Virus record (IMG/VR): IMGVR_UViG_3300028920_000038
Span: 73,848 to 137,847 of that record
DNA from: a virus
Strand: one strand, 5' to 3'
DNA: 64,000 nucleotides
In this document: positions 10,463-63,998 of the stretch, piece by piece
Layout of the letters: each line of letters begins with the position of its first letter
Numbering within the stretch: the first letter of the stretch is position 1
The notes under the pieces: generated by a model
Databases searched by the model: none
The model's input: the letters and a program-made list of their open reading frames with translations, nothing else
Told to the model about the DNA's origin: nothing
Position numbers and translations under genes: made by a program

Positions 10463-10948
10463 TTATAACCCTGAAGATCCACTAACAAACCCTTCTATTT
10501 TTGTGTGGATCCAATCTATAGTATCTAAAGTAGTTGTAGTTATATTTTTTACATATAGGAGAGTGTTTTTTCTCATATTTTTTAGATTAGACCCATTCAT
10601 AGCAGATGAGCTTGGTGTAGGATATAATCTTAAAGTATTCTCTCCAGTCCATGTCTGATCATAATAAGTAGGTCTACCAAGAATCTTATATAACTCTCCA
10701 GTTGCTCCAGGGGTTACATTAGACATTAGGGTATTTAATTGTGTTTCATCTAACCAAGTTGAGACTGTTACAGAGTAATTCTCAACATCCCAGCGAGAAC
10801 ACTTACAATCTATAAAATCGTCTCCATCTAAGGAATTATAAAAAATAGCTAAATCATTTTCAAATTTAAATAACGTAGGGATATCTCTAAAAGTGATACC
10901 TTCATCATCATCGAAATGATAAGTAAAAGAATAGTGACTTGTTGGCAT
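10463..10948 (-). CDS. Tail-tip protein, conserved ~120-aa domain (paralog 1; Dit/gpM-like by inference)
   Basis: FIDCKCSRW...NVTPGATGELYKILGRPTYYDQTWTGENTL...KIEGFVSGSS, near-identical to the C-termini of 16727 and 17611. Confidence 0.55.
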   Translation of the reverse strand: MPTSHYSFTYHFDDDEGITFRDIPTLFKFENDLAIFYNSLDGDDFIDCKCSRWDVENYSVTVSTWLDETQLNTLMSNVTPGATGELYKILGRPTYYDQTWTGENTLRLYPTPSSSAMNGSNLKNMRKNTLLYVKNITTTTLDTIDWIHTKIEGFVSGSSGL

Positions 10949-10995
10949 ATTAATCTAAATGTGGATATATTATGATATTACGATAATACCATAAT

Positions 10996-11214
10996 CTAAG
11001 TTATTACATCCTCATCTATTTCAGGACTTAATGATTCTTGTGCTATTCTTATTTTACCACTTTTATATATTCTCTTAATTGTAAAAACTATTTTATCTTT
11101 AATCCACTGATTATCAGTTCCTTCCCAATCGTCTGGTATTGGATATATTTTAAGGAATCCAGCTTTGAATTCTTCCAATTTTTCATCAGGAACTGTTAAT
11201 GTTAATTCTACCAT
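10996..11214 (-). CDS. Small hypothetical protein (possible fibre assembly factor)
   Basis: 72-aa ORF with a GAGG-type RBS in the tail block. Confidence 0.5.
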   Translation of the reverse strand: MVELTLTVPDEKLEEFKAGFLKIYPIPDDWEGTDNQWIKDKIVFTIKRIYKSGKIRIAQESLSPEIDEDVIT

Positions 11215-11252
11215 TTTAACCTCTTCTTTCTTTAATTTATAAACATATTAAA

Positions 11253-11930
11253 TTAAATATTATATGAACCTGAAACCCAAGCCCATGAAGTAGGGTTTCC
11301 ACTTGGATAAAAATAATTCGAAGATGAACTAATAACTCCCCATTTCCAATTAGTCGGTTCATCTGAAGTTGCTCTAATTCCACTATCAACATTGAATTGA
11401 CCTGAATTCCACACCCAAGATGTAGGAGAGCCAACAAGAGTTATGAATTTACTATAATAACTGCCTTCCTCTTCACAAGTATAATATACGTACATTTTAA
11501 CATAATCTACATACATACCTCCTTCATTGATATCTGTATTAGCAACAGCTTTTAATGCTATTCCAGATGGAAAATCAGATAGATCCTCACCCCAATCATC
11601 ATCTTGTGCTCCAGCTGTCTCTATACTATGATCTGGATATTCAGTAAATTCTCCTGTTTCTTTACCGTCTGAAAAAGTCTGACCACTATCTATTGATATA
11701 TACATTATTAAAGATGGAGAACTTCCTTCTACAGTTCCTTTAGCTTTAGCTTCTGCTACTATGCCATCTACTTGATAAATTTCACAATCAAGATTAAAAT
11801 CATGTCCTCCTACTGTAACGTATTCTCCATCGGAAAGAATTGTTGAACAACCTCCATCCTCCAAAACGCAACCAGAATAATTTACATCAGAATCTATTAC
11901 ATTACTAAAAAAAGTGCTATCAGATGACAT
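11253..11930 (-). CDS. Virion protein: beta-sandwich domain plus Trp-rich C-terminal module
   Basis: MYVDYVKMYVYY jelly-roll-like ending; C-terminal SPTSWVWNSGQFNVDSGIRATS module shared with 38897. Confidence 0.55.
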   Translation of the reverse strand: MSSDSTFFSNVIDSDVNYSGCVLEDGGCSTILSDGEYVTVGGHDFNLDCEIYQVDGIVAEAKAKGTVEGSSPSLIMYISIDSGQTFSDGKETGEFTEYPDHSIETAGAQDDDWGEDLSDFPSGIALKAVANTDINEGGMYVDYVKMYVYYTCEEEGSYYSKFITLVGSPTSWVWNSGQFNVDSGIRATSDEPTNWKWGVISSSSNYFYPSGNPTSWAWVSGSYNI

Positions 11931-11934
11931 AGTA

Positions 11935-12468
11935 TCAAATTAGATTAATTAAATCGTTACTTAAATTTTGTCCATAGTAAATTTCATTGTTTACTACAGA
12001 ACTCGATGCATTTGCATAATTGTAAAGCCAATGGAATTCATAAGTTTCTAGCATATTATAAGATAGATATCCTTGTATTCTATCTACTTCTTCATTATAT
12101 TTTAATGTACTAAAGCTATACTCTAACAGAGAATGAGCTTCGCTGATACCGCTAGAATTACCAAAATCATATAATATTAATTCACAAATAGCCAAATCAT
12201 CTTTAATATCCCACTGAAAATAAGATGTCATATTAGAACCACTAAATGCACCATAACCAACTTTATTAGCTGATGGATGGTTACATAAACTAACGTTAGA
12301 TATATCACTAGAATAAATACGTTTTCCCTTCCACAAATCTACTAATTCATTATCATCAAGATGTCTATTAGTATGGTTGGAATTACTACTTTGCCATGAT
12401 CTATAATATTCATACAAATAATACACATCAACGATATCATCTTCAATTATTTCTCTATATGTAATCAT
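11935..12468 (-). CDS. Hypothetical protein, possible degenerate GNAT fold
   Basis: MITYREIIEDD start, GYGAF...YF beta strands, SLLEYSFSTLK helix; canonical acetyl-CoA motif A is weak. Confidence 0.35.
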   Translation of the reverse strand: MITYREIIEDDIVDVYYLYEYYRSWQSSNSNHTNRHLDDNELVDLWKGKRIYSSDISNVSLCNHPSANKVGYGAFSGSNMTSYFQWDIKDDLAICELILYDFGNSSGISEAHSLLEYSFSTLKYNEEVDRIQGYLSYNMLETYEFHWLYNYANASSSVVNNEIYYGQNLSNDLINLI

Positions 12469-12480
12469 AATTAATCGTTA

Positions 12481-15400
12481 TTAAGTAGACAGACCTAGCT
12501 GTATCCATTCCCAGCTATTCGCATCATTCTTAACTGACATAAATATCCATGTCTTCTCATCAGTGCCACCAGATACTCTAATTATCTCACCCTTATGATT
12601 TGTAGCAGTAGGTTTAGATGAATATAGATTAGTTAATACCTGCATACCTGATATTTGACTACTAGTTGCCATAGAATTAATAATAGATCCACTTATCTTC
12701 GTATTACCGGATAAATAGATATTTCCGTATCCACCAGTATTTATAGAAACTGACCCACTACCAATAATATTAATATATGGATATGAATCTAATGTATCTC
12801 CATATAACCATAATTCACTTCCAGTAGATGAATCGCCCATAATAACAGATTGATTTGCACCAGCATTATATTGAAATTTAAAAGATTGAGTATCTTCTTC
12901 ATAAAATTTTATATCATTTTTTGTCCGTAATTCTATTTCCTCGTCTCCTTTTAGACGTATGTGTGGGAAATCAGTAGCAGTATTCGCATATATTCTCAAA
13001 TCGTTTCCTGCTTCATCAGGTCCATATAATTTAGCAATTGTAGAAGTACCTGAGAATGTAAATTGAGTATCAGTCTTATTTCTTATTCTAAAGAATCCAC
13101 CATCATTTGGCCCATAAGATGCAACAATAGAACCAGAACCATTCAAAGTTATATATGGATAATCATCATCTGAGTTTGCTTTTATTTCTAAATCATCACT
13201 AGTATCAGCCCCTCCTTGGATAAAACTATCTGCGCCATTAAGATAAAATTTAGCAATCTGTGCTGCTTCATTAAAAATCTTAAAACTTGTAGCGTCTTGA
13301 ATTTTTAAATAAGATGCATCTCCAATATTCATTTCGATACGTGGATAATTTGCACCATCTCTTGCATAAATCCACAAATCAGCACTAGCATTTGTATTAC
13401 CATAGAACTTTGAAATAGGATCATCTATAGTAAACTTGAACATTTGAGTAGAACCGCTCTTGAAATAAATGTTTTCAGTTGTACCTATAACTGTATCTCC
13501 ATCTGCTTGTATAGCAATTCCACTAACTCCACCAGCTACTAGATTTGCTTGGTCTGATTTTAATGCTAGGTAGGTATCTGAATCCCCTACGTGTTCTACT
13601 TTCTCAGTAGTTTTTAGATAACTACCTCGAATATTAACTCCGGATATATATGAGGCATTATGAATTCCTTTGCTATTCCAATCCTTATGGTCATCTATAC
13701 TTAAAGCAGATAATGTAGATACACCACCACCTGAACCACCAGATGGCATAGCTACCCAAGCTGAGCCATTCCACATAATACCGGAATTAGTAAATTCATC
13801 AGAATCCCATCCATCGATTTCAGTATCTTCACGGATATGATCTAAACTTCCACCACCACCTGAACCAGCTCCACTTGCAGTTAAGGATATCCAATCACCA
13901 GAATTAGCACTACAGAGATATATATCGCAATTTGTAGTGGAACCTGACATCCATAGATTACCTGCAATTTTTGAAGGTTCAGATCCACCAGGTTTAATAT
14001 ATACCATATTACTGGACATTCTAAATAATGTATCGTGATTATCATATATTCTAAATTGTTGACTACTTGGTATTGTAAGAACTGCATTACCAGAACCTAA
14101 TAATTCCAATTGACATTTTCCTTTAGGTCCGTTATCCACACCATAATTAGGTTTTATTCTCATTCCACTGGCTGATTTATTGGTACCATATATATATGAA
14201 TATGTTCCTACACGGTCAAATAGAAACATTACATTAGATCCATCACTCATGTAGATATCAGGATTACCAGCTACACCTTGAAGATTAATATAACTATTGC
14301 CTACCATATGTATTCTAGGCCAAGTATCAGTAGAATTTGCATTAATACGTAATTTCTCACCAGTACCAGCACCACCTTCTAATATAGAACCAATACTAGA
14401 ACCTGAGTAAAATTTGAATGCTTGGACTCCATTTTCATCTATACGGAAATCATTGCCAGTACCATAGTTAATCTCTACAGAACCACCACCAAACATTCTT
14501 AACCAAGGTATCATATCTGTACTATTTGCATGAATATAAAGGTCTCCAGTAGAATTACTTCTACCCTCTATTACAGAATTATCACTACCAGAAAGATAAA
14601 ACTTAGCTATTTGAGTATCTTTACTCTTAATATAAACATTTCCAGATGCATTAATATCGATATGAGAACTATCGTAAAGAGTTATTAGAGGCCAAAGTTT
14701 ATCATCAGTTCCTTGTATGTTGAGATTACCAGCAGAGCCACCTTCTATGTAATTATTACCACCTTGTTTATTAAATTTGAACATCTGCGTTGTATTATTA
14801 AGAAACTGTATGACACTTCCATCAGCACAACCCATCTCTACATTTCCACTACCGTATAAAAATAAACCTGCTCTTTTATCAGTATCATTTGCATAGATGT
14901 ACAAGTCTCCTCCAGTAGGGTCTGGTCCTCGAATATATGAGTTACCAGCAGTATAATTAAATCGAAACATCTGCGTGCCTTGTTCCTTGAAGTAAATATC
15001 AGCGTAGGAATCTATATTTATATTACTACTTCCAACCATATCAATATATGGATATGAATAATCTTCATGTGCTTTCCAATTAAATCGAGCTCCATTTGTT
15101 GCAGCTCCATCTAGATGAACATCACTATAATTATTATCTGTATAAACTCTAGCAGAATTATGACCTTGATTTCCAAATACTACTTTAGAATTACCAGATG
15201 CGGAAATATAAATATTTCCAGGTACTGTTGCATCACCATCTCCTATCATCCAAATCATTGGATAGGAATCAACTGAATTTGCCTGTATGATTAAATCATT
15301 CTCGTTTGTAGAACCTCCATAAAGATAAGATTGATTAGTACCATAAACAAACTTAAATGACTGTGTGCCTTTGTCAGTGAAATAGATGTCATTATTAGAA

Positions 15401-16707
15401 CCTAATATCAAATCACTATCAGAAGATATATAAGGGATATTAGTGATACCATGTCCATCCCAATCTTTATCTATATCTATAGATAAATCGCTTAAATTGG
15501 AAGCTCCACCTTCTGCTGCTTCTGTTAGAGATTTCCATTCACCTCCTGTACCTGATTTGTAGTATAAATCAGATGAGGATAAGCTTCCAGAGAACCAGAT
15601 AACACCACCAACATTCGGTGGTTGATTACTAGATGGCATTATTCTAAAATATGAATAGTAAGGGCTAAAATCAAGTTTAGTAGATCCTTCTAACCATACT
15701 CTAAAATTGGAGTCCGTATTAGCTGGAATATCAAATCCTGCAATTCCATAACTAGTACCAGAACCATAAAGTCTTATCATTGGATATGTATTATTTTCAC
15801 TTGCTATTATTTGTAAATTTCCAGATACATTAGATCCATATATTTTAGAAAGAGAAAGAGATTTAGCAAATTTAAACATCTGCGTGCCCTGTTCTCTAAA
15901 AAAGATGTCCGCTTCAGAATCTAAAATAAGATTAGTATTAGCAGTATCGGTATTAATTATAGACTCTCCACCAACTAGCTTAAACTCAAACATTGGACTT
16001 GCTTGCTCATAAAAATTAATATTCTGATATGCAGCTAAAGTAATATCCCCCTGGCCATAAACACCAAGATATCCATTTGCGGCAGCATTAGTATTTGCTT
16101 GTATGACAACATCATGATTTGCATCAGTGCCTCCTTTAATATAGCTCTTATCACTTCCATCCCATTCAAACTTAAACATCTGCGTATTCTGTTCTTTGAA
16201 GAGTATATCCGCATAGCTAGTTACAGTAATATTTTCTTGTCCTTCAATAAAGATATTTCCATTTAATTGAGAATTACTATTAGCAGCTAACATTAAATTC
16301 ATTGTTGCACTAGTACCACCATACATAATTTTATTACTTCCAGCAGATGTGAATGTGAATATACGATTATCCTTTAATCTGAAATAAATATCTCCATAGG
16401 TATCTAGGTATATATTTCCACTACCTTCCAATATCATTCTACTATAAGGAGATAATGAGTTCGCCATAATATGTATATCTTCTCTATAACTATCTGCTCC
16501 GTAAAGAATTGATTTAGTTCCTGCATCATATTCAAATTTAAAAAATTGGTTGCCATCATCTTCAAAGTAAATATCATCAGAAGTATTAAAATGTTTCCAG
16601 CGAGCAGACTCACTCGGATTATGACAAATTGCACCTGACATAGTATTCCAATTGGTATAGGTGATAGTATCACCACTAGCCATCGTATCGAACCAATTTG
16701 TAGCCAT
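12481..16707 (-). CDS. 1408-aa tail fibre/spike with many ~55-60-aa beta repeats
   Basis: Repeated DIYFxEQGTQMFKF...GG....DL.I.ANS.D.YPYI.L.GSG units; Gly-rich linkers. Confidence 0.7.
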   Translation of the reverse strand: MATNWFDTMASGDTITYTNWNTMSGAICHNPSESARWKHFNTSDDIYFEDDGNQFFKFEYDAGTKSILYGADSYREDIHIMANSLSPYSRMILEGSGNIYLDTYGDIYFRLKDNRIFTFTSAGSNKIMYGGTSATMNLMLAANSNSQLNGNIFIEGQENITVTSYADILFKEQNTQMFKFEWDGSDKSYIKGGTDANHDVVIQANTNAAANGYLGVYGQGDITLAAYQNINFYEQASPMFEFKLVGGESIINTDTANTNLILDSEADIFFREQGTQMFKFAKSLSLSKIYGSNVSGNLQIIASENNTYPMIRLYGSGTSYGIAGFDIPANTDSNFRVWLEGSTKLDFSPYYSYFRIMPSSNQPPNVGGVIWFSGSLSSSDLYYKSGTGGEWKSLTEAAEGGASNLSDLSIDIDKDWDGHGITNIPYISSDSDLILGSNNDIYFTDKGTQSFKFVYGTNQSYLYGGSTNENDLIIQANSVDSYPMIWMIGDGDATVPGNIYISASGNSKVVFGNQGHNSARVYTDNNYSDVHLDGAATNGARFNWKAHEDYSYPYIDMVGSSNINIDSYADIYFKEQGTQMFRFNYTAGNSYIRGPDPTGGDLYIYANDTDKRAGLFLYGSGNVEMGCADGSVIQFLNNTTQMFKFNKQGGNNYIEGGSAGNLNIQGTDDKLWPLITLYDSSHIDINASGNVYIKSKDTQIAKFYLSGSDNSVIEGRSNSTGDLYIHANSTDMIPWLRMFGGGSVEINYGTGNDFRIDENGVQAFKFYSGSSIGSILEGGAGTGEKLRINANSTDTWPRIHMVGNSYINLQGVAGNPDIYMSDGSNVMFLFDRVGTYSYIYGTNKSASGMRIKPNYGVDNGPKGKCQLELLGSGNAVLTIPSSQQFRIYDNHDTLFRMSSNMVYIKPGGSEPSKIAGNLWMSGSTTNCDIYLCSANSGDWISLTASGAGSGGGGSLDHIREDTEIDGWDSDEFTNSGIMWNGSAWVAMPSGGSGGGVSTLSALSIDDHKDWNSKGIHNASYISGVNIRGSYLKTTEKVEHVGDSDTYLALKSDQANLVAGGVSGIAIQADGDTVIGTTENIYFKSGSTQMFKFTIDDPISKFYGNTNASADLWIYARDGANYPRIEMNIGDASYLKIQDATSFKIFNEAAQIAKFYLNGADSFIQGGADTSDDLEIKANSDDDYPYITLNGSGSIVASYGPNDGGFFRIRNKTDTQFTFSGTSTIAKLYGPDEAGNDLRIYANTATDFPHIRLKGDEEIELRTKNDIKFYEEDTQSFKFQYNAGANQSVIMGDSSTGSELWLYGDTLDSYPYINIIGSGSVSINTGGYGNIYLSGNTKISGSIINSMATSSQISGMQVLTNLYSSKPTATNHKGEIIRVSGGTDEKTWIFMSVKNDANSWEWIQLGLST

Positions 16708-16726: not shown

Positions 16727-17611
16727 TTATAAATTAGAAGATCCCGAGACGAATCCCTCTATTTTTACATTCAAAAAACCTGAAGGACCCTCGAAAGGAG
16801 AGTCGGTAATACTTTTAACATATATTAAACATTCTTTACGCATATTTTTAAGATTTGAACCGTGTTCTGAATTTGGAACTATTCTTAGAGTGTTTTCTCC
16901 ACTCCAAGTTTGATCGTAATAGGTAGGTCTTCCTAATATTTTAAAGAGTTCACCAGCAGCTCCTGGTGTTATATTATTTTTTAAAGTTTGTAAATCGGAT
17001 TTATTCATGAAGGTTTCTAATACAATAGAATAATTTTCTTGAGTCCATCGAGTGCAGAAACAGTCAATAAAATTACCCAAGGATAAACTAGAATAATATA
17101 TTGCAATATCTTTTGAATGAAGAAAGTAGTTATATTGAGCATAGAAGAAATGTCCATAGTTATAAATATCATAATTAGTTTGACTATCCAAAGTTGGGTA
17201 TTTGGAAGCAAAATCTCCACTATCGTTATCAGAGTAATCTTTACTATTATCGTACCAGACCTTACCACCACCAGTAGTCCAGTAAATAAATTTACCGTTT
17301 TCATCACTCCAAATGGCTATAATATATGTTGTACCAGCAGTAATAGATGATGGCCCAAAGTTGGCAGTATTCCATGTATCATCAGTACCAGCTCCATCAA
17401 TTTCACTTGTCTGAGCTACAATTTCTCTTGTACTAGACACATATACTGCTCCCCTAACTTTTTCTCCTGGATCCCAATCTGAATCTCCTCTAACGTACAT
17501 TTTATCTAATGTACCTGTATATTTAGCAGTATCATAATGATATATTATAGTATCTGTATAATTAAAAGAATCACCAGAACTACCAGATCGTCCAATTAAG
17601 TCAGTTGACAT
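16727..17611 (-). CDS. Tail-tip protein: beta-sandwich N-domain plus conserved ~120-aa C-domain (paralog 2)
   Basis: C-terminus FIDCFCTRW...NITPGAAGELFKILGRPTYYDQTWSGENTL; N-terminus RGAVY...EIVAQT...FGPSSITAGTTYIIAIWSD shared with 17611. Confidence 0.6.
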   Translation of the reverse strand: MSTDLIGRSGSSGDSFNYTDTIIYHYDTAKYTGTLDKMYVRGDSDWDPGEKVRGAVYVSSTREIVAQTSEIDGAGTDDTWNTANFGPSSITAGTTYIIAIWSDENGKFIYWTTGGGKVWYDNSKDYSDNDSGDFASKYPTLDSQTNYDIYNYGHFFYAQYNYFLHSKDIAIYYSSLSLGNFIDCFCTRWTQENYSIVLETFMNKSDLQTLKNNITPGAAGELFKILGRPTYYDQTWSGENTLRIVPNSEHGSNLKNMRKECLIYVKSITDSPFEGPSGFLNVKIEGFVSGSSNL

Positions 17612-18837
17612 TATGTATCCAACCTAGTTCCTTCAATCTTTATATGGAACTTTTCCCAATTAATAAAATCGTCGCTTATATTTTTTACAGCTATTATACG
17701 TTTTTCTCTGAGAGATGATAATCCATAACCTGAAATTGGTTCTAAAATTAATGTATTTCCAGAAGAATATGTCGAATCTATAAAGGTGGGTTTGCCTAAT
17801 ATTTTATATAATTCACGGACTGCTCCAGGAGTTACATTTTTAAATAATGTATTTCTAGCTCCTGAAGATAGAAAAGTTTCTACTATAACATTATAATTAT
17901 CCTCATCCCATCTTGTAGCCCAGCAATCTATATAATTAGCGGGATATTGATTGCAGGAGTAATGGATTCTAAGAGAGTTTCCTTCTTTGTATGTATATCC
18001 AGCGGAAGTACCGAAGGTAATAGTAGAATCAAACCAATCTTCACCTCCACCTAAGTTATTAGAAGATATATACACCCTATAACAATATGAGGTATTTGGA
18101 TTTAAATCAGTTAATTGTTGAGTAAGATATTCTCCACTAGTTACAATTTCTTCATATTGACTACTATAACGCCATTCACTTGGGTCAGTGCCTCCTCCAG
18201 TGCTTCCTGTTTCATAATAGAATTTTACATTACCTGGACCTCCTGTACATTTTGCTGATAAAGTGACAATTGATACTCCAGATGCAACACACCCACTAAC
18301 ATTTGTTATTGTAGCTGTAGGGTTTTCTAAATATGAAGCATACATTTGTATTAATTTTTCTGAACCAATCTGAGTAAAGTCTGGATCTAAGGTAGGTAAA
18401 TATAGAGAAAAATCTCCACTACTACTAGCATAAAAATTCCTACCTGAATCCCACCAATAATATTTTCCAGCTACAGTCTCTATACCAAGGGTTTTAATAC
18501 TATCATCACCCCAAATTGCAACAATATATGTCTCATTAGCAGATATAGAAGATGGACCGAATTGACCAGAAACCCATTCAATATTTCCTCCAGATGGTCC
18601 ACTAAATGGATCTGTTTGAGCAATTAACTCTCTATTAGATGATAAATATACTGCAGCTCTAGCAAATTCAGTATGGTCCCATCTTTGTGTTTCAGTTGCC
18701 CCACTATAAACTCTAAGGAAAAATTGGTCTAATATTCCCGCTGAATTACTAGAACCATATATATACTTTATTTGATTACTAAGTGCAGTAAAGGTACTGC
18801 CTGCATTAGAACTAAATCCTATTTCATTATATGTCAT
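17611..18837 (-). CDS. Tail-tip protein: beta-sandwich + FN3-like domain + conserved C-domain (paralog 3)
   Basis: LTDLNPNTSYCYRVY FN3 motif; C-terminus YIDCWATRW...NVTPGAVRELYKILGKPT. Confidence 0.6.
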   Translation of the reverse strand: MTYNEIGFSSNAGSTFTALSNQIKYIYGSSNSAGILDQFFLRVYSGATETQRWDHTEFARAAVYLSSNRELIAQTDPFSGPSGGNIEWVSGQFGPSSISANETYIVAIWGDDSIKTLGIETVAGKYYWWDSGRNFYASSSGDFSLYLPTLDPDFTQIGSEKLIQMYASYLENPTATITNVSGCVASGVSIVTLSAKCTGGPGNVKFYYETGSTGGGTDPSEWRYSSQYEEIVTSGEYLTQQLTDLNPNTSYCYRVYISSNNLGGGEDWFDSTITFGTSAGYTYKEGNSLRIHYSCNQYPANYIDCWATRWDEDNYNVIVETFLSSGARNTLFKNVTPGAVRELYKILGKPTFIDSTYSSGNTLILEPISGYGLSSLREKRIIAVKNISDDFINWEKFHIKIEGTRLDT

Positions 18838-21800
18838 TATCCTATCTCCTGTTTATGTTCTAATTCTGCAACTTTTCTAGCAATATCATAAGGTTGTTTA
18901 CCATAATTAATTGTAGTTGTAAATCCATTTTGGTCTATTCTTTGAGTATATGATACTACATCCCATATCTCATTGATTCCAAAATTAGTTAAATTAGAAG
19001 AAAATCTATAATATGTATCGATGTCTGTAATTCCTTCAATAGTAACTGAACCTTTTTTAGGAATTGTTTCCATTCCAGATACTTCCAATTCAGCTCTTGC
19101 TTGAGCCTGTTCAAATGTTGTATAGCTAGAATCGGATATTTTCTTAAAATGTTTTCCATATTTATTTATACTCGTTTGATTAGAGGCTCTATAAGATATT
19201 TCTCCTTGTCTCCATCCAAGTTGAAATGACATATTTCCATCAGGGATTGTATCTGGATTTGTAGCATTCGTGCTCCAATTTATTCCATTATCCCAGGAGT
19301 AAGCTATTTTTCCATTATAAGGTGAAGAAACATCATAATGGTAAGCCCAATAATCATCAGTTGTATAAACTCCTATTTTCCTAATAAAAACTTGTTCATC
19401 CTCATAATCAGTTGGTTCAAATCTTAACCAAAAATCTGACGTATAATAAGAAGATGGTATTTTATAAGAAAATTGTTGTTCAGGTGCTGAAGGATTGGCT
19501 GTAGCTAACTCTACCCAAGAACTACTTGATGTCTTTCTTATTTTGCAAGTAATTGGATTTCCAGTAACATCTCCATCAGTACCACAAACTTCGAATTCTA
19601 CATATGATACATTAACTGAGTCAAGATCTATATTTTTCCATATATGACTATTAGGCCATATACTAATTGGTTTAGGAGATCCTCCATAAGCAGTATAAGT
19701 AGTTACAGTACCTGCTTGTTCCCAATCATCCTTATCAGTAGTTGGTCCATATTCATAGGAAAAACCTGAATCATATTCAGGTGAAGTAAATATCATCCAC
19801 CATGTATTATTCTCTAATTCATCTGGAGCTAATTTTGGTTCAGAATATGTCTTCCATGAAGAATAGCTCGGAGGATAAGGAACATCTCCAGGAGACCAAG
19901 AAATATCATCAGACCATTCTACTCTAGTTCCAGATTTCGGTACTCCTCCTCCAATAACCTTTTGAGCGTATAGTTGAGTTCTTCCTATAGAAGGTGAATT
20001 GGTTATAGGATAAGGAGCCCATTTAACTTTATTACAAACTCCACTAGTTTGGAAGCAATACATAAGAACTGCATTTTTACCGTCATCAACATCGGTAACA
20101 GAATTAGCACTCATATGAGTCCATGAAGATCCACTATTTAAAGAACCAGAATATGATATATATTGATTATAAGTTACATTTGTCGGTTTAACTTCTAAAA
20201 AACTCATGTCCATATTATTAGCAACAGTATAATTATTTGTCTTAAAACATTTTCTTAATCCACTATAATGAGAACCACTTCCTATTACTCTGGCAAGTAT
20301 TCCATAACTCCAAAGGTTAGCACCTTCGTATCCACTAAATTGTCTCATTTGTACTTTTATTTTTCTTATTCCACTATATATCCAATCATCATCAAATAAA
20401 ATTTCAGCCCATTCATCTGGTTCAGTTTCTAAATCTATTGCTCCATCAAATACATGAATCCAATCACTCCATGTTGTAGATATATATATGTCTCTCATCT
20501 CAACATCAGAATGAGATTGTGCGTTAGCCTTTGCGTATATACCATCACACAACATTGGAGCATCAAATTCATATATATCTGTTATTGTTCTATTATTTCC
20601 ACCACCATAATCCTGAGCATAAGTAAGTAAACTTCCATCTATCAAAGCACCTTCAATACTACCTGGATCTCCATTCCAATGTTTGTATCCATCATATATA
20701 GTATACTCACATCCAATTGGATTCTTTGTCCCGCTATAATATTCGTGCCTACTAGTAGATATGTATATAGCTCCATTATATATCTTAGCTCCAGTGGCTT
20801 GTGAGGATAAAAATGAATTGTCGTTGAAATTATCATCAAAAATCTCGTCTTCAAATCCTCCAGAATCGTCAGAAATCATTAAACTTGCACTACCGATCCT
20901 TGGTGTAAAGTGTCCATTAGAGGATAATTTATAGTATACAATACATCCATCAGATGATTCACTACCAAAGTCAACCCATTCTCCATCTTTTAATGTAAGT
21001 CGAGAACTACCACCATCATTAGTACCAGAGATAAATATATGATTTGATGAAACGACTCCAGTTAGGTCCAATTTCATATATCTACAATCATTAGGATATG
21101 AAATACTAGAAATATACCCAATAGTTTCATAGTTGCTCCAAGAATAATACAGATGTCCATCTATATTATATTCCCAACCATGATAACTAAAATGAAAACC
21201 ACTACCCCAAGATGATCCCTTTCCATGATACAATTTTCCTGGTATAATGTCTTGCGTATATGTAGTTTTCAAATAAACTCTAGCTTCTTCTGCACCATAA
21301 GGTCCATCGTTACCTTTAATTAAAAATGCATATGTCTCACCACTAATCATTCTAATATAACTATCACTAACATCCACTAATACAAGTCCATCCTGCGATG
21401 GTATAGTAGTAGACCATAGTATATTCTCATCTTCTAATGCTCCTTTTCTTAATTCCAATAGATATTCCCAACACCACATATGATCCCATAAACCAAAACC
21501 TAATAAACTAAAAAATCCATTATTTGAAGGTATAAAAGTTTGTGCGAAATATTCATTGTGAGTTTGAACTTCTGCATTATATGGAGTATGTTCTGCAACA
21601 TAATAATAATTGCTATCATCAGATGTGGCTAAATTTAAATCACTATTTCTAACACATATATTAGAAGAATAACTAAATAAATCTAAATTGTTAAAATCGT
21701 CCTCAAACAATTTCAATTCTGTATTTTCCCATATTTCAAATTCAAGAGTTCCAGGAGCATCTGGATCTGTACTTCTATCTAAATATAACTTAATAGCAGA

Positions 21801-33476: not shown

Positions 33477-33495
33477 ATTTATCCTCACTTAAAAT

Positions 33496-45322: not shown

Positions 45323-45328
45323 TGTCTA

Positions 45329-49619: not shown

Positions 49620-49645
49620 TTTATTTCCCTTTATTTTATTATTAT

Positions 49646-49697
49646 AACATACTGTAAAATTACAGTGAACATAGGACAAATAAACATAAAAAAACAT
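49646..49697. promoter_or_regulatory. Inverted repeat ACTGTAA-AA-TTACAGT (49651-49666) flanked by AACAT motifs upstream of MCP
   Basis: Perfect 7-bp arms; four AACAT copies within 52 bp. Confidence 0.35.
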
Positions 49698-53812: not shown

Positions 53813-56182
53813 TTACTCTTCATCTATTTCAAAATTCCGAAGAAACTTTTCAAGAGATTCGTCATCTAATGTAGTAATTACCATTTGCATCATTTTATTT
53901 ATTTTAGTATCTAATTTTTCGAATTCCTTTTCATTAGTTTTTTCCATAATTTCTTTAGACATATTTTTGAGTTCATCTATAGAATCGTCTATTATTTTAG
54001 TAGCTTCACTATAATTCTTGTCAGAATTTTTTATATTTTTCTTTATTAAATTTAACTTTTCTGTTAGTCTATCTATTTGTAGAATTATCTCATCTTTGGA
54101 TTCTTCTATTGTTTTGATTTCATCTTTGTGTTTTTTATTTGTAGATTTCTCTAATTTATTTATATTTTTAATTATCTTCGATACATTTTCAATTAGATCA
54201 TCTCTTTGTTTATGAGTCCAAGGAGATTTGCCTCTTGTATATACTGCATAAGATTTACCTCCACCTCCTCCATAAGCTTCTAGATTCGAAGATATCCAAG
54301 TAGTCTGTGAAGATAGCCAAGTAGTTTGTGTTGATATGTAAGATACCATATTTTGTGTGGCAGTTCCTCCAGCAGCAGACCAATTTGCATCGCCATGAGT
54401 TATAATAGACCCACTTTGGAACCAAAGATTATTTGAAGATGCCCAATTAACTATACCAGATATGTAATTAACCTGAGGTGATAAATCAGCTGCAGCGGCA
54501 GTCCAATTGTTATCTCCATGAACTATAATTGCAGCAGATGGGAATACATCAGCTACTTGAGATGAAATGTAATTTAATTGTGTTGATATGAATATACTTC
54601 CAGCACTTCCTCCACCAGTTCCTGTAGACCAATTATTATCTCCATGTACTATGATATCTCCAGAAGCAAATATATCACCAACTTGTGAAGAGACGTAATC
54701 CATTTCAGATTCCAATTCATCAAAGTCTGATGGTGTTGCAAATCCAACTGCAGTAGCCCAGTTAGTATCTCCATAAGATTCAATTCCTTTGACTTGAGAT
54801 GATATTCCAAATATTTGAGAGGATATATGATTTAATTGTGAAGAGATAAATTCACTACCAGCTGAACCTCCTCCTACTCCAGTTGTCCAATAGTTGTCTC
54901 CATGTAAGATTATAGCAGAGGATGGGAATGAATTTCCTGATATATAATCAGTATCTTTACCTAATTCAACAATATTTGAGGATATAGCAGATAATTGGGA
55001 TGATAAGAATCCAGAACCTCCAACTCCCTCCCAAGAGCCTGCTCCGTGAGAAGAAGTTAATTCTGTATCTATATCTGTTGGTATATTATTAATATTTGAA
55101 GATCTCCAATATATATCACCGTGTGTTATTATACTTCCTGAATTCCATTGTTGAGATGAAATCCAATCGATTGTATCATCTCTAGTTCCAGCAGTTAATT
55201 CTCTAGTAGCAACAGACCAAATATCTGAAGCATTATGAGTTGAAAATCCTACAGCTGTTATCCAGTTATTGTCTCCATGGTCTATAATAGCCGCAGATGG
55301 ATATATTTGAGATGATATGTAATCAGTATCTTTTCCTAATTCTACTGTGTTTGAAGATATAGCAGCAAGTTGAGATGATAGATAAGCTGAACCTCCAACT
55401 CCTTCCCAATCTCCACTTCCGTGAGAGGATGATAGAGTTGTATCTACATCTGCTGCTGAATGAGTTGAGAATCCAACTGCTGTAATCCAATTGCTATCTC
55501 CATGTGTTATTATATCTCCTGATGGAAATACTTGAGATGAAACATAGTCCATTTCCGATTCTAATTCAGCCAAATCAGCTGCAGTTGCAAAACCTACAGC
55601 AGTTGCCCAATTTGAATCTCCATGAGTTTCTATTCCATCTAATTGTGATGATATACCAATTATTTGTGATGAGATGAAATTGAGTTGAGATGAAATGAAA
55701 TCCGATCCACCACCTCCACCTGCTCCGGTTGACCAATTATTGTCACCATGAGCAATGATATCCCCACTTGGAAATACTATTCCAGATATATAAGATAAAT
55801 TATCTTGTAATTCAGATATATTAGATGATCTCCAGTAATTATCTCCATGAGTGATAATAGATGAAGATGCAAATTGTTGACTTGAAATCCATACAATGTT
55901 GTCTTCTATAGAATCGACTTTAATTAATTCTCCATCAGCTCCATAAGAATTACTAGTTACAGAATATCCAGCATCTGTAAATACTACAGTTTGTAGATAA
56001 TAATATCCTGAAGTTGATGGAATAAATTCATTATAATAATAACCACGAGCTACGTGATTTAAATCTTTTGGTGATTGGCCTATTTCCTGCGATGATATAT
56101 AAATCCATACTCTAGGATAGAGAGAGGATTCTCTCTTAGCTAACTGAAGAGTTATTGGATAAATATCGTTCACAGTAGGCAT
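53813..56182 (-). CDS. Repeat-rich virion protein (HGDxxW repeats) with C-terminal coiled coil
   Basis: About 11 II.HGD.(N/Y)W units plus aromatic-x-SSQ motifs and Gly linkers. Confidence 0.65.
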   Translation of the reverse strand: MPTVNDIYPITLQLAKRESSLYPRVWIYISSQEIGQSPKDLNHVARGYYYNEFIPSTSGYYYLQTVVFTDAGYSVTSNSYGADGELIKVDSIEDNIVWISSQQFASSSIITHGDNYWRSSNISELQDNLSYISGIVFPSGDIIAHGDNNWSTGAGGGGGSDFISSQLNFISSQIIGISSQLDGIETHGDSNWATAVGFATAADLAELESEMDYVSSQVFPSGDIITHGDSNWITAVGFSTHSAADVDTTLSSSHGSGDWEGVGGSAYLSSQLAAISSNTVELGKDTDYISSQIYPSAAIIDHGDNNWITAVGFSTHNASDIWSVATRELTAGTRDDTIDWISSQQWNSGSIITHGDIYWRSSNINNIPTDIDTELTSSHGAGSWEGVGGSGFLSSQLSAISSNIVELGKDTDYISGNSFPSSAIILHGDNYWTTGVGGGSAGSEFISSQLNHISSQIFGISSQVKGIESYGDTNWATAVGFATPSDFDELESEMDYVSSQVGDIFASGDIIVHGDNNWSTGTGGGSAGSIFISTQLNYISSQVADVFPSAAIIVHGDNNWTAAAADLSPQVNYISGIVNWASSNNLWFQSGSIITHGDANWSAAGGTATQNMVSYISTQTTWLSSQTTWISSNLEAYGGGGGKSYAVYTRGKSPWTHKQRDDLIENVSKIIKNINKLEKSTNKKHKDEIKTIEESKDEIILQIDRLTEKLNLIKKNIKNSDKNYSEATKIIDDSIDELKNMSKEIMEKTNEKEFEKLDTKINKMMQMVITTLDDESLEKFLRNFEIDEE

Positions 56183-57173: not shown

Positions 57174-57182
57174 ATATAATAC

Positions 57183-58093: not shown

Positions 58094-58100
58094 ATTAACC

Positions 58101-58778: not shown

Positions 58779-58779
58779 T

Positions 58780-59358: not shown

Positions 59359-59368
59359 ATTAACCTCA

Positions 59369-62300
59369 TTAAATTATAAACCATTGCCCAGATTTATGAG
59401 CAACAATTGTCATACTATCTAAATCCTCTATTTCAATATAATTCTCATAATCTATTGGTTCATATCCACTACCGGATACAGTAATAACTGAACCTCCAGA
59501 TCCTACATTTTTAATTACATATTCCTTTCCATGTATCGAAGTTGGGTCTGGTAGAGTAATATTAAATGTTCCTCCACTGCATATAATTATATCATCTAAT
59601 GATGTAGCTGTATAATCTGATGTTTTAGTTTCAATATGTCTTGTTAATCCTCTAATAGTGGTAGCTCCATCAACTTCAAGAGATCCTCCTAAATATGTAG
59701 ATCCTCCATCTACATATATTGCATAATTATTATACGTACTAACACCAGTGATAGTGTCTGTAGAATCAAACCCTTCAATTCTTAATCCATATATATTAAG
59801 GGAATTCCATGATCCTCCTCCAATATTGAAAACGTTAAGTGAACCTCTATCTACTCTTAATCCATATAGAGTATGATCTATTCCTGTATCTGTAGTGGGT
59901 AACCAAGAATTGGTTCCTAAGTTTATATCCACTCCTTTAATTATGTAACTACCTGAGATATAAGAATCTCCATGGTCTATTTCAAAGAGAGTTCCGGTAT
60001 CATTATGGTTTCCTTTACCTAGAGTATTTCCCATATTAACTTTTTGGTAATTAACTATATTAGTTCCGCCAGTTATACAGGAATGATATATCTGATCGTA
60101 GTTAACGTAATCTATAGCTCCTGATAGATTATATAATGTGTATTTCTTAATAATTCCTACAGATGCATTGGTATCTTTTCCTGATATGTCCATTGCAGGA
60201 CTTCCGATGCTTCCTTGGAACTTACCTAAAGATTGGACAAATCTGCCATAGAGTTCTACATTACCAGAAAATATTGCTCCACTCATTACCATTTCATATG
60301 GGTAAATATCTATATCTGAATCTGCATTAGATCCATCTAATAGAAGATAAGCTCCTGATATACTAGAACCTAGACTAGATGGATAATATAGATTCTTGGA
60401 ATTGCTAGAAAATGAGACTAAAGTAGAAACAGTTCCAGATGTTCCAGCACCTATTGAACTCCCATAATAAAGATTAATTGCATTAGACGAAAAGTTAGTA
60501 TTAGATAGTGTATTAGAAGATACATTATCAATGTAGTTTCGATTAACCTGTGAAGAAGCAGTGTATAGATTTTTAGAATTACTCGAGAATGCTACAATAC
60601 TTGCAACTGTTCCAGAAACACCTGCTCCAATGGAAGAAGGATAATATTCTCCATTAAGCCAATCTATTAGATTACTTGAAGGGAAATGAATATCAGCATT
60701 AGAAGAATGTCCTATATATCCTACAGCTCCTGACCAAGCAGAAGAAGTTCCACTCTGTTGATATTCTCCATCTAACCAACCTAATAAATTACTAGATGCT
60801 AAGTAATTTGATTCTATCCAATGCTTATTAACTGCAGATGATGGATATAATGGATCCACTAATCCTGATATAGAATTACCTTTGAAATAGGCAACTCCAC
60901 TTAAATATGTATCTCCTGAAACCTGGAAATTATAATCACCAAGATCGAAATCTGAATGTCCAATTCTTACTTCACTATTACGATATATGTCATCTCCATC
61001 TAAGGACCATATTCCAGATGGAGCATAAATATTTTTAGCATTCGATGAGAAATTAGTATTAGCTAAAGTATTTGATGATACATTATCTAAATAGGTTTTA
61101 TTTACTAAACTACTAGCTGGATATAAATTATCATGAATATGTAATGCAGATGCGTCACTACCATCTGTTAAAGTATTGAAATTTGTGTCATCTGTAGCAG
61201 TTAGATGATAATATTCATCAGCAGTTCCACCTTGTAATCCACCTAAATCATTATGCTGGTCAACTGAACCTGCTGTAAATTTAGTTACCCAAGGAACCGC
61301 AAATTCAGCATTATCCATAGTTGTTTCACCCTGTTGGATAATTAATCTTGCAATCAAAGCACAATTGGTTTCAACTAAATCTGGAACTGTTGCTGGTACA
61401 GATGAATCTTCAGCTCCCGCTAAAGAGTATTGATCTTGACCATAAAGGATATTTAAATCTCCATCTGCTTCAAGATATAACCAGTGAACTCCATATTTAT
61501 TAGATACTAAATCATTTAGAGTTCCAGTTCCATCATCATAATAATTTGGGTCAACATCTGTTTGACCACTCTTTGCAATCCATCCCCCAGCACCATCTCT
61601 ATACCAGTATGTAAATGTTTCATCATGAATATGTCCATCTACAGTAGCATCTGGAATTGCTTGCCATACACCAATTCTAGTATATCCAGAACTACTTGGT
61701 TCTGTAGCAGAACTTACTTGATAGATACCATCATTACCAGTAGAATCTTCCACTTCAATAAAATATCCAACAACTAGATGAGGATCTTTAGAACCAGTGA
61801 TTGCAAACCATCCTTCAGATTGATTTACTGCAGTTATATCATGATAATGTCCTGTATCAATTTCTGGTACAACAAACTTATTCATTGCTTGCCAAAATGC
61901 TCCAGCAGTTACGGATAAGCATAATGGATGACCAGACGTTGCAGAAGATGCAGCCACTAATCCAGTACTTCTCTCTAATCCATAGACTTCTCTAAATCTT
62001 TGTTGTGCCTGCTTACCAAGAGCTGGAAATCTATATCCACCTTGGAATATATGAAGTTGAGGTATTGTACCAGTAGTAGTGTCATTATATACTTGACCTA
62101 TTGGAATTTGAGAATTCTTATTAAGGGATGCACTTTGTTGATGTCCATATTTTGGGGAACCACTATTATAATCTGCATAGATATAGTTGGTGCCAGCTTC
62201 TAAATATATATTTGAAGATGCTTCTATTTCAGCAAGCCAACCCTCATCAATATCATTAGGTCCTTCCTTTAGATATACAATAGATCTCCCTATATTAATT

Positions 62301-63574
62301 GCACCTGTACATGCAACAGTTCTTGTAATCGCACCTCCAGATAATAAAGTGGCAGCATCCATCAATGAATTATAGAGACAGAGATTATCATAAATAGTAT
62401 CCCCAATGGAATCCATTTTGACATCATGTGCACCAACTCCTGAAATTGCTTGTGTAGATATATAAGGGAAATCTCCTACTCCAGATGGATGATAGAGATT
62501 TCTTGAATTTGAAGAGAATAAAACTAAATCTGAAACTAAACTAGATACTGGCCAATAACCAGAAGCACCACTCCATGAACTCGGTTCTTGAGATTCAAGA
62601 GAGTCTAAACGAGTATCTATAGAACCTGATAAGTTGTCTATCCAAGTTGTATTATAAATGTTACTAGAGTGTACATATTGAGTGTGGTCAAACTCATCGT
62701 TATCTTCTAGGTCATCTAAACGAGAATCTAGATTACCAGATAATGAATCTATCCATGTTTGTGTATAGAAATTATTATCTATCTCTGTTTCTGTATAGTA
62801 CAAATCATCATGGGAGTGAGAAGATGCTCCATATAGATTTATGGCATTACTTGAAAAACCATAGAAAGAAGATGCACCAGACCAAGATGACCCAGATAAA
62901 TCATGAGTGTGATTAGCTAAAGCAAACACACCGGTAGATGTAGATATATACGCTTGACTGTACTTTTGACCTGATATTACTAGACCAGACGGGTGATAAT
63001 CATCATCAAGAGAATCTTTTGTGAAATGAATAGTTGAATCATTTTTGTGAGATTGATAATTAGAACTACCAGCATAATCATCATCTATAGATGATTTAGT
63101 AAAATGTATTGTGGAATCATTCCAGTGAGTATTATAAGAACCACTCATCGCTACATATCCTGTAGCACCTGACCATGCCTCATCCGATGCAGTTCCACTC
63201 TCTTGATATAGAGCGTTCAACCAACCTAATAATTGTGACGATGGAAAGTGTAAATCAGCATTAGACGAGTGACCTATGTAGTTACTAGATATTGTATAGA
63301 ACCCAGATGCACCGCTCCAAGCAACATCGCTACCACCAACAACTTCAGCCCAAGTCAATTCATCAGATGCATCCTTATATTGAAGATAATATCCATTAGT
63401 CGGAGAATTAGATATATCCAAGTATGCTTCAGATATACTATCTAGTTTTATGCAGGATGATGGTAAATAAGAACCTGTAGCACCACCACTTGTACCAATT
63501 ATTTGATTGGCACTAACCATACCAATAAATCCACCACCTTTAGGTACTATCGCTGCAGTTAATACAATTGGCAT
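59369..63574 (-). CDS. 1401-aa fibre protein with shared Ser-rich modules
   Basis: WSGASG, HSSNADIHFPSS, WIDSLSGNLDSRL modules; C-terminal TKTSDYTAT.LDDIIIC..GTFNITLP...GKEYVIKN fibre-tip motif. Confidence 0.75.
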   Translation of the reverse strand: MPIVLTAAIVPKGGGFIGMVSANQIIGTSGGATGSYLPSSCIKLDSISEAYLDISNSPTNGYYLQYKDASDELTWAEVVGGSDVAWSGASGFYTISSNYIGHSSNADLHFPSSQLLGWLNALYQESGTASDEAWSGATGYVAMSGSYNTHWNDSTIHFTKSSIDDDYAGSSNYQSHKNDSTIHFTKDSLDDDYHPSGLVISGQKYSQAYISTSTGVFALANHTHDLSGSSWSGASSFYGFSSNAINLYGASSHSHDDLYYTETEIDNNFYTQTWIDSLSGNLDSRLDDLEDNDEFDHTQYVHSSNIYNTTWIDNLSGSIDTRLDSLESQEPSSWSGASGYWPVSSLVSDLVLFSSNSRNLYHPSGVGDFPYISTQAISGVGAHDVKMDSIGDTIYDNLCLYNSLMDAATLLSGGAITRTVACTGAINIGRSIVYLKEGPNDIDEGWLAEIEASSNIYLEAGTNYIYADYNSGSPKYGHQQSASLNKNSQIPIGQVYNDTTTGTIPQLHIFQGGYRFPALGKQAQQRFREVYGLERSTGLVAASSATSGHPLCLSVTAGAFWQAMNKFVVPEIDTGHYHDITAVNQSEGWFAITGSKDPHLVVGYFIEVEDSTGNDGIYQVSSATEPSSSGYTRIGVWQAIPDATVDGHIHDETFTYWYRDGAGGWIAKSGQTDVDPNYYDDGTGTLNDLVSNKYGVHWLYLEADGDLNILYGQDQYSLAGAEDSSVPATVPDLVETNCALIARLIIQQGETTMDNAEFAVPWVTKFTAGSVDQHNDLGGLQGGTADEYYHLTATDDTNFNTLTDGSDASALHIHDNLYPASSLVNKTYLDNVSSNTLANTNFSSNAKNIYAPSGIWSLDGDDIYRNSEVRIGHSDFDLGDYNFQVSGDTYLSGVAYFKGNSISGLVDPLYPSSAVNKHWIESNYLASSNLLGWLDGEYQQSGTSSAWSGAVGYIGHSSNADIHFPSSNLIDWLNGEYYPSSIGAGVSGTVASIVAFSSNSKNLYTASSQVNRNYIDNVSSNTLSNTNFSSNAINLYYGSSIGAGTSGTVSTLVSFSSNSKNLYYPSSLGSSISGAYLLLDGSNADSDIDIYPYEMVMSGAIFSGNVELYGRFVQSLGKFQGSIGSPAMDISGKDTNASVGIIKKYTLYNLSGAIDYVNYDQIYHSCITGGTNIVNYQKVNMGNTLGKGNHNDTGTLFEIDHGDSYISGSYIIKGVDINLGTNSWLPTTDTGIDHTLYGLRVDRGSLNVFNIGGGSWNSLNIYGLRIEGFDSTDTITGVSTYNNYAIYVDGGSTYLGGSLEVDGATTIRGLTRHIETKTSDYTATSLDDIIICSGGTFNITLPDPTSIHGKEYVIKNVGSGGSVITVSGSGYEPIDYENYIEIEDLDSMTIVAHKSGQWFII

Positions 63575-63575
63575 T

Positions 63576-63998
63576 TTAACTCGTCCTTATTGTTATAGCA
63601 CCAAGTCCAGGGTTCTCTGAACGGTATACATAGAAATCTTCAGTCCAACCTTTAGCGTTTGTCACACTAACTGTTTCTGCATCTTCAAATGCAGCCTCAA
63701 AACCTGTACCATTATCATAGAATGTATAATCAGTTCCCTTTTCCCCCCATCTTTTAGGGAAACAGAATAACAAATACTCACCAGCATCAGCAGTAACTTC
63801 ATTCCAAGTTTGTGTTGAATCGTCAGTTATTGGGGAATTAGCAAGTCCTTCAACATCATCTTCATCATAACCACTAGTAGTTGTTGTCACTCCATAATAA
63901 ATCTCATTAATAGTAGAATATCTAGTATCAAATGTAGCACTACCTAAATTAGCATCTTCAGATGCATATACCTTATAATTCTCTGTGTACCCAGCAGA
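63576..63998 (-). CDS. Partial (5'-truncated) virion protein with duplicated TN..G.TE.Y.VY.S domain
   Basis: The frame is open to the window edge (SAGYTENYKVYASEDANLGSAT...YYGVTT), so the track start at 63890 is internal. Confidence 0.65.
   Translation of the reverse strand, partial: SAGYTENYKVYASEDANLGSATFDTRYSTINEIYYGVTTTTSGYDEDDVEGLANSPITDDSTQTWNEVTADAGEYLLFCFPKRWGEKGTDYTFYDNGTGFEAAFEDAETVSVTNAKGWTEDFYVYRSENPGLGAITIRTS

Follow-up and report, generated by a model that had tools for sequence, protein, structure and literature searches.

The fibre, tailspike-like and tail-tip proteins encoded in a 64-kb stretch of DNA from an uncultured tailed virus were found to carry a four-residue motif, PHI-S-[S/G]-[N/Q], in which PHI stands for I, L, V, F, Y, W or P. 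The stretch, here called the window, comprises the last 64,000 nucleotides (positions 73,848 to 137,847) of the IMG/VR virus record IMGVR_UViG_3300028920_000038, which has a length of 137.8 kb and an estimated completeness of 87%. The genome under study is designated G000, and its relatives (G001, G002, G006 and others) were reached via a capsid protein search. An earlier note on this DNA had proposed that S-S and S-G dipeptides in outward-facing virion proteins form acceptor sites for viral glycosylation and phosphonate enzymes. The underlying observation is real, and it is stronger than stated once the context of the dipeptides is included: judged by its sequence statistics, the four-residue element, termed the strict motif, represents a genuine short linear motif that the clade carries in its fibre, tailspike-like and tail-tip proteins. 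We tentatively favour the reading that structural turn sites have been recruited as acceptors for a serine-specific O-glycosylation.

Sequence specificity of the motif

Expected counts were obtained from shuffles of each protein and additionally from local shuffles in windows of 40, 20, 10 and 8 residues. The strict motif occurs 90 times in the window with 11.6 occurrences expected (about 7.7-7.8-fold, z 24), and a 6-fold excess is retained after local shuffling in 8-residue windows. Six permuted orders of the same residues reach only 0.4- to 1.2-fold. The sites share a context with a hydrophobic residue or proline before S-[S/G] and asparagine, glutamine or serine after it, and the residues at positions -1 and -3 from the serine are hydrophobic or aromatic. 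The extended form PHI-S-[SG]-[SNQ] is enriched 4.65-fold.

Each position is selective. At the second position, serine is enriched 4.75-fold, threonine reaches 0.78-fold and all other residues are found at about the expected frequency. The third position takes serine (4.8-fold) and glycine (4.7-fold), the others being close to 1-fold. At the fourth position, glutamine (10.6-fold), asparagine (6.1-fold) and serine (2.7-fold) are enriched, and aspartate, threonine and lysine are not (about 1-fold). The threonine form of the strict motif is found at 0.76-fold in the virion module of the window and at 0.45-fold in its non-redundant fraction. Threonine is not shunned in general, as PHI-T-PHI (1.06-fold) and T-x-x-[E/D] (1.30-fold) are normal in the same proteins. 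Serine is depleted outside the motif, both in PHI-S-PHI (0.71-fold) and in PHI-S followed by any residue other than S or G (0.79-fold). In the non-redundant fraction, 25 strict motifs were counted with 6.1 expected (4.1-fold, z 7.5). These sites have flanks without shared similarity, e.g., SYCYRVY-ISSN, CIVYYK-LSSN and DIDTYYR-FSSN. A motif of the form [ST]-[GAS]-S, which was also considered, is not enriched (1.08-fold).

Distribution among proteins and related genomes

The virion genes of the window and the positions of the motif are as follows:

10463 to window end, minus strand: virion module with many large proteins without family match
10463..12468, minus strand: three small terminal virion genes
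12481..16707, minus strand: virion protein, 1408 amino acids; 9 sites, 2.5 expected
17611..18837, minus strand: modular protein, 408 amino acids, with a conserved C-terminal domain of about 110 amino acids; 23 S-[S/G], 10.4 expected, and 5 strict sites
18837..22547, minus strand: distal-tail protein, 1236 amino acids, directly after the tape measure; 6 sites, 1.8 expected
22553..28801, minus strand: tape measure; S-[S/G] depleted (9, 17.9 expected), no strict motif
31194..33488, minus strand: tailspike-like protein, 764 amino acids; 9 sites, 1.9 expected
33496..35385, minus strand: right-handed beta-helix (tailspike-like) protein, 629 amino acids; 7 sites, 1.4 expected
35389..38433, minus strand: fibre, 1014 amino acids, with 42-residue repeats and ISSNLDxRID units
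38897..41434, minus strand: virion protein, 845 amino acids; 7 sites, 1.2 expected
41746..43959, minus strand: fibre, 737 amino acids, with 42-residue tandem repeats (YHPSG-x-VISG ... ETYSSE), paralogous to 35389-38433 and 59369-63574
44846..45802, minus strand: two tail-tube paralogues, fold confirmed; no strict motif
48648..49697, minus strand: major capsid protein; no strict motif, not enriched
50125-51684: protease within the virion module
53813..56182, minus strand: fibre in the head module, 789 amino acids, with 11 units of about 42 residues and ISSQ heptads
59369..63574, minus strand: fibre, 1401 amino acids; 77 S-[S/G] and at least 14 strict sites

Outside the fibres and the tailspike-like and tail-tip proteins, the motif is found only in two proteins near the record's left end. 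It is missing from the tape measure, the capsid protein, the two tube proteins, a glycine-rich trio (56190-58778) and every gene of the sugar operon. The description of fibres, tubes and head proteins alike as studded with the pattern thus applies to the fibres, tailspike-like and tail-tip proteins, but not to the capsid protein, both tubes and the glycine-rich trio, which are not enriched. The non-virion proteins of G000 (20.4 thousand residues) hold one site, with 4.1 expected.

The related genomes, which serve as replicates, show the same restriction. In G001 (155 kb), the virion genes at 97.8-155 kb are enriched 8.3-fold and the other genes 1.5-fold. The virion strand of G002 reaches 5.3-fold and its other strand 1.3-fold (6 sites, 4.5 expected); for G006 the values are 5.5-fold and 1.0-fold (4 sites, 4.0 expected). 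Shorter relatives mostly range from 2.3- to 10-fold. The most distant relative, with a capsid protein 41% identical, and one other relative carry no motif. The motif is also absent from the outgroup type L031.

In 59369-63574, the units WSGAxGF, HFPSS, FSSN and YHPSG-VISG recur and are common to three other fibres. Each unit of 53813-56182 contains [YFW]-[IV]-S-[SG]-[QN] followed by HGDxxW, and none of the 40 sites of this protein lies in its C-terminal coiled coil (residues 640-789). The aromatic-x-S-S-Q/N pattern, previously called strict in this protein, is dominant but not strict, as 17 of the 29 S-S sites conform to it. The fibre 35389-38433 has an N-terminus like that of phage hyaluronidase and tail fibres.

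The window DNA and two fibres had no match among cultured phages, the fibres none among PDB sequences and the 789-residue fibre (53813-56182) none in the ESM Atlas, and a word-index search with the beta-helix protein (33496-35385) found only this protein itself.

Further features of these proteins were observed. The fibre 59369-63574 holds several His-x-His-Asp motifs (HTHD, HSHD, HIHD), similar to the H-x-H motifs that bind metal at the tip of the T4 long tail fibre. The conserved domain of about 110 residues ends three genes on the minus strand (10463-10948, 16727-17611 and 17611-18837), and in metagenome relatives it is joined to very different N-terminal parts, including a concanavalin-like one (PF13385); the family looks like swappable receptor-binding proteins. 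The C-terminal 70 residues of 38897-41434 are common to 11253-11930. The tail-tube gene is a tandem duplicate in G000, and open reading frame calls give four copies in some relatives (L010, L017).

Repeats, paralogy and turnover of sites

About two thirds of the sites are located in tandem or shared fibre modules. Modules are shared among four fibres (31194-33488, 35389-38433, 41746-43959 and 59369-63574), with recurring units of the types DNYHPSG-x-VISG, SDVAWSGAxxFYGFSSN and HKxDSDIHFPSS, and distances of 7 and 42 residues between sites are in strong excess. ISGSVG is found in both tube paralogues. VSGSS stands at two paralogous C-termini; 10463-10948 is paralogous to the C-terminal domain of 16727-17611 and 17611-18837. 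Nearly all examples that had been quoted for a convergent origin of the motif (WSGA, HPSG, VISG, FPSS, ISSQ, ISGSVG and VSGSS) belong to such repeated or paralogous modules. Since these copies share long context, they are homologous and not convergent, and this part of the earlier proposal was not upheld.

Beyond these copies, the comparison of orthologues supports, at the level of sequence, that the motif is present in unrelated folds and is renewed at new positions. Based on one orthologue pair per protein, 45 and 55 sites were counted, 28 of which are shared, with about 5 expected by chance. The lineage-private sites, 17 and 27, amount to 4-5 times chance, although these turnover figures are possibly inflated by alignment slippage in repeats. 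The non-repetitive 1236-residue protein (18837-22547) behaves in the same way, with 4 and 3 sites in the orthologue pair and only one shared with G001. The serine of S-G is kept at 58% of the aligned orthologue positions, compared to 44% for other serines, and it is replaced by threonine half as often as other serines. S-G and S-S are exchanged among orthologues at 5-10% of the positions, which supports the original grouping of S-S with S-G.

Comparison with folds and structure models

Motif and fold were compared in unrelated virions and in distant homologues. In coliphage virions (T4, T5, lambda), the serine form is found at 1.66- to 1.8-fold and the threonine form at 1.92-fold, and the virion proteins of halovirus HF2 show the strict motif at 2.0-fold. 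A generic property of phage fibres was therefore rejected as the full explanation, given the 1.2-fold S-G and the 1.7- to 2-fold motif enrichment in T4, T5, lambda and HF2.

The beta-helix protein 33496-35385, which matches the Pfam family Beta_helix (PF13229, 4.4e-13), allowed a control within one fold; the other motif-rich proteins match no beta-helix family. An exhaustive profile-free search with 33496-35385 yielded 76 distant homologues (23-37% identity, 56 thousand residues). In these, the serine form reaches 1.56-fold and the threonine form 2.10-fold, and the glutamine form is depleted (0.55-fold). The residues opposite the motif serines of the window are serine in 78 and threonine in 75 cases, and at site 314 the homologues read [I/V/L]-T34/S12-G57-N26/S25, where the numbers are counts. 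In right-handed parallel beta-helices, i.e., tailspikes and the pectate-lyase fold, [I/V/L]-[T/S]-G-[N/S] stands at the coil turns, as at the sites of 33496-35385. Since distant homologues carry this pattern at the same places, at least some of the sites are ordinary turn positions of the fold. The interchangeability of serine and threonine expected of a beta-helix turn is not seen in the window, where the threonine form is at 0.76-fold compared to 2.1-fold in the homologues. While the homologues use threonine at least as often as serine, have little glutamine and reach 1.5- to 2-fold only, the motif of the window is also found outside beta-helix proteins. A generic property of the beta-helix fold was thus likewise rejected as the full explanation (1.56-fold serine and 2.10-fold threonine form in the homologues). 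Based on these comparisons, the part of the signal that appears specific to the clade consists in the restriction to serine and in the density of the sites, which is high.

In the tail tube, S95-G96 of the I-S-G does not vary among 46 sequences and is placed within a strand by the structure model (pLDDT 74); according to this model, the tube I-S-G is a feature of the fold, and it does not match the strict motif. A small head-module family has an invariant S68 and a nearly invariant G69. In the model of 17611-18837 (pLDDT 70, from an alignment of 18 rows), 11 of the 23 S-[S/G] are located at a strand end or at most two residues after it, and only one lies just before a strand. Together with the hydrophobic residues at -1 and -3, this location suggests that the motif serine should face the solvent at a strand end. 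Such a predicted solvent-facing serine is compatible both with glycosylation and with a structural role.

A purely structural explanation has to be weighed here. It states that the motif is a strand-capping or turn element of the beta-rich trimeric architectures of the clade, unmodified, inherited with the folds and amplified by duplication and exchange of modules, with the preference for serine reflecting a packing or stability need of the clade, e.g., in cold sediment. We regard it as nearly as likely as the glycosylation reading, so that it, too, falls short of even probability. The hydrophobic or aromatic -1 and -3 residues, the strand-end location in the model of 17611-18837, the alignment of sites with conserved turns in distant homologues, the fixed 7- and 42-residue spacings, the invariant or nearly invariant S-G of the tube strand and the small head protein and the 1.5- to 2-fold baseline in other phages all agree with it. 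In addition, Asn-Gly is depleted to 0.6-fold in G000 and G001, and as Asn-Gly of relatives aligns most often with S-G, the latter seems to take over turns. What it leaves unexplained is the drop of threonine to 0.5- to 0.8-fold within the motif only, with normal threonine elsewhere, the 4- to 8-fold density above a 1.5- to 2-fold baseline, and the recurrence of lineage-specific sites in unrelated folds. If the motif were only structural, it would represent an unusually sharp clade-wide rule of serine for threonine at turn positions, and a warning against taking motif enrichment in fibres as a modification site.

Sugar operon and proposed O-glycosylation

The glycosylation reading draws on genes next to the virion module:

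84-10347, plus strand: sugar-nucleotide, methyltransferase, glycosyltransferase and phosphonate genes
84..1100, plus strand: soluble protein of 338 amino acids that weakly matches GT2 (PglI); gene also present in G001 (39%) and G002 (60%)
1097..10347, plus strand: variable part of the sugar operon, including the phosphonate genes, which are absent from relatives
Sugar operon: core GT1/GT4-like protein, 305 amino acids
L049:13456-14433, plus strand: radical SAM enzyme with a SPASM domain, upstream of the window in the sugar operon
L049:9043-14433 with window 84-1100; G001 66-94 kb; G002 46-74 kb; L058: loci of the core operon

The operon starts about 10 kb upstream of the window. Its GT2, GT1, TOD1/MUCI70-like and GT8-like genes adjoin the virion module and are convergent with it, so that glycosyltransferases are phage-encoded as in the mycobacteriophage type of system. 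A core of epimerase, GT8-like, GT1/GT4-like, weak GT2-like and radical SAM-SPASM genes is conserved in G000, G001 and G002, whereas the other operon genes differ between the genomes; G001 and G002 contain four or five epimerase-type genes each. The operon co-occurs with the motif in all four large genomes (G000, G001, G002 and G006). The 310-residue core protein has an Atlas model like GT8 enzymes over its full length (TM 0.67-0.69), and among viral contigs its gene was found outside G000 only in G001, G002 and G006; a single-sequence locus search with it gave no match. None of the three transferase-like proteins, which are encoded at window 84-1100, L049:10585-11517 and L049:12506-13423, contains a membrane segment. 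The product of 84-1100 is a candidate reader or extender enzyme. G001 and G002 have kept the radical SAM-SPASM gene (27-30% identity); enzymes with a SPASM domain are often peptide modifiers.

The phosphonate genes of G000 encode an Fe-ADH, decarboxylase pieces and a fusion of PepM with a cytidylyltransferase (7555-8826). G001-G006 have no PepM. As G001, G002 and G006 show the same enrichment and PepM is present only in G000 among the compared genomes, the motif is independent of the phosphonate pathway. The role of the phosphonate machinery proposed in the earlier note is thereby not supported, and its proposal of an acceptor site is left with the glycosylation part, which agrees with a virion-restricted, clade-specific serine motif and with the sugar operon in four of four large genomes.

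The favoured O-glycosylation reading starts from the location of the motif at the transition from a beta-strand to a turn or helix. Many of its positions are ordinary structural sites of the folds, and most copies were multiplied via tandem and shared fibre modules. Special to the clade are the constant serine and the high density of the sites, of which new ones are gained while others are lost. According to this reading, these turn sites would have been recruited as acceptors for a serine-specific modification in the cytoplasm. While the statistics, specificity and distribution of the motif and the shared genes are shown, a modification of the serine, its nature and the enzyme responsible are inferred: the most likely modification would be O-glycosylation by the three soluble glycosyltransferase-like proteins common to all four large genomes of the clade. 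Its sugar would come from the variable remainder of the operon, and phosphonate would be an optional decoration of the glycan in G000 only.

In its most explicit form, the motif would be a serine-only sequon for O-glycosylation that has not been described before and that the conserved soluble trio (GT8-like, GT4-like and GT2-like) reads in the cytoplasm, so that the fibres and the tail tip, not the capsid shell, would be sugar-coated in a clade of large tailed marine-sediment viruses, with a sugar that varies with the variable cassette and bears phosphonate in G000. This seems possible rather than probable. If true, it would provide a four-residue serine-only rule together with a small conserved enzyme set, which is directly testable, explain 20-kb sugar operons without export genes in large tailed viruses and give a sequence signature for sugar-coated virions in metagenomes. 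To our knowledge, there are very few systems in which the particles of tailed viruses are known to be glycosylated, and a fibre sequon is not among what has been defined for them.

The bacterial autotransporter heptosyltransferase (BAHT) systems Aah/AIDA-I and TibC/TibA offer a parallel, in which a soluble cytoplasmic enzyme hyper-glycosylates many serines, each followed by small residues, at the turns of a repetitive beta-helical surface protein (PMC4358343). In TibA, the heptose added by TibC is attached to serines and not to threonines, at N-S-G-G and T-S-A-A (PMC4358343). The putative acceptor of the window is similar in its sequence statistics, being serine and not threonine (4.75-fold compared to 0.78-fold) and followed by a small residue (serine or glycine). 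However, the enzymes TibC and Aah belong to family GT9, which is missing in G000, their substrates are bacterial adhesins with a proven modification, unlike the virion fibres with a modification that would be predicted here, and no asparagine or glutamine is described at +2, where the motif has it. Since G000 lacks GT9, its system is not a member of the BAHT type, and TibC/Aah is the closest working analogue.

Mycobacteriophages encode glycosyltransferases that act in the cytoplasm on structural proteins of the phage itself (Freeman et al., 2023, as cited in PMC12619734). The glycans sit there on C-terminal tails of the capsid and tail-tube subunits (as cited in PMC12619734), whereas in G000 both lack the motif and the fibres and tail tip are the candidates. 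The general O-glycosylation sequon of Bacteroidota, D-(S/T)-(A/I/L/V/M/T), is likewise short and is found on many proteins that are exported or exposed at the surface. Its glycosylation takes place outside the cytoplasm, and D-S-[A/D] was rejected as a motif of the window, as it is not enriched (18 found, 19 expected, 0.95-fold).

Several points weigh against glycosylation. The strict motif was defined on the data of G000 themselves, the replicates being related viruses. About two thirds of the sites occupy fixed positions of regular structural repeats, and the glutamine form comes largely from one repeat family. The baseline of 1.5- to 2-fold in unrelated virions and the alignment of sites with conserved turn positions indicate that part of the signal is structural. 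The capsid and tail tube, which lack the motif, are the very proteins that are glycosylated in mycobacteriophages. The genome contains no GT9 heptosyltransferase, GT41 or Maf-type protein O-glycosyltransferase; for PF01075 (GT9), no match was obtained in the 137.8-kb record. Every genome with the motif also has sugar genes, but all are relatives, and the co-occurrence therefore counts as one phylogenetic event and not as a correlation; among the long contigs, all carry sugar genes and no clade member without them was found. Finally, confidence in the structure models is moderate (pLDDT 70-74), and they do not include the fibre trimers.

Possible other chemistry at serine and amide residues

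A different chemistry of the motif is improbable, although some features of the proteins would suit it. The motif could form autocatalytic Ser-Gln/Asn ester cross-links that stabilise the fibres, receive an enzymatic tag (phosphoryl or methyl) or be recognised by an assembly chaperone. In 11 of the 11 units of 53813-56182, S-S-Q/N is paired with a conserved H-G-D about 12 residues further on, which brings Ser, His, Asp and Gln into one 42-residue unit. The fourth position takes only the amides asparagine and glutamine and not aspartate or glutamate, and the operon contains several methyltransferases besides the radical SAM-SPASM enzyme. On the other hand, H-G-D stands beside the motif in one protein family only, and known ester cross-links join sequence-distant residues within Ig-like domains. 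As pure speculation, it may be noted that the Ser/His/Asp/amide set of the 53813-56182 unit (H-G-D-x-x-W) is that of autocatalytic ester cross-links or of a catalytic triad.

Dipeptide statistics

The dipeptide S-G is the most enriched of the 400 dipeptides in the virion module, with 271 occurrences and 168 expected (1.6-fold, z 9), and this excess is unchanged by local shuffles of 40, 20 or 10 residues. Outside the virion module it reaches 1.16-fold in the rest of the genome and 1.08-fold in the sugar operon, and in the virions of T4, T5, lambda and HF2 1.2-fold only. S-S is enriched only 1.24-fold in the virion module, about equal to the rest of the genome. Masking of every later copy of a detectable repeat takes out 32% of the virion residues, after which S-S is reduced to 1.12-fold and loses its significance (z 1.5), while S-G stays at 1.48-fold (z 5.1). 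The S-S excess is thus mostly serine composition and repeats. The codons at S-G equal the general codon usage, so that the constraint acts at the protein level and a DNA-level word was rejected as the cause.

The manual counts of the earlier note, 21 S-[S/G] in the first 280 residues of 59369-63574, 3 in the capsid protein and 5 in PepM, were reproduced, as was the scarcity in the tape measure (9 S-[S/G], 17.9 expected). The comparison with shuffled proteins that it had called for separates the two dipeptides, with S-G and the strict motif exceeding composition and most of the plain S-S excess being accounted for by composition and repeats. Composition alone was hence rejected for S-G and the strict motif and accepted for most of the S-S excess. 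That the motif as a whole is an unselected artefact of Ser/Gly-rich composition (serine 11% and glycine 8.6% in virion proteins, 6.7% and 5.5% elsewhere) and of internal repeats is very improbable, since S-G and the strict motif, unlike S-S, survive global and local shuffles (40, 20, 10 and 8 residues) and the masking of the 32% of repeat copies, and permuted orders are not enriched.

Two other dipeptides deviate in the virion module. Pro-Ser is the second most enriched (1.74-fold, z 6), largely from Y/H/F-P-S-[G/S] in the fibre units, and it also reaches 1.49-fold in the non-virion part of the genome. Asn-Gly is depleted to 0.58-0.60-fold (z -4) in the virion modules of G000 (10463-63998) and G001 (L040-L043), whereas the other genes of these genomes and the virions of coliphages and HF2 show no such depletion. 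Among the Asn-x dipeptides, none but Asn-Gly is depleted to a comparable extent, and the N-G sites of relatives align most often with S-G in G000. The depletion may reflect avoidance of deamidation-prone Asn-Gly in long-lived particles, which is a side hypothesis for the S-G excess.

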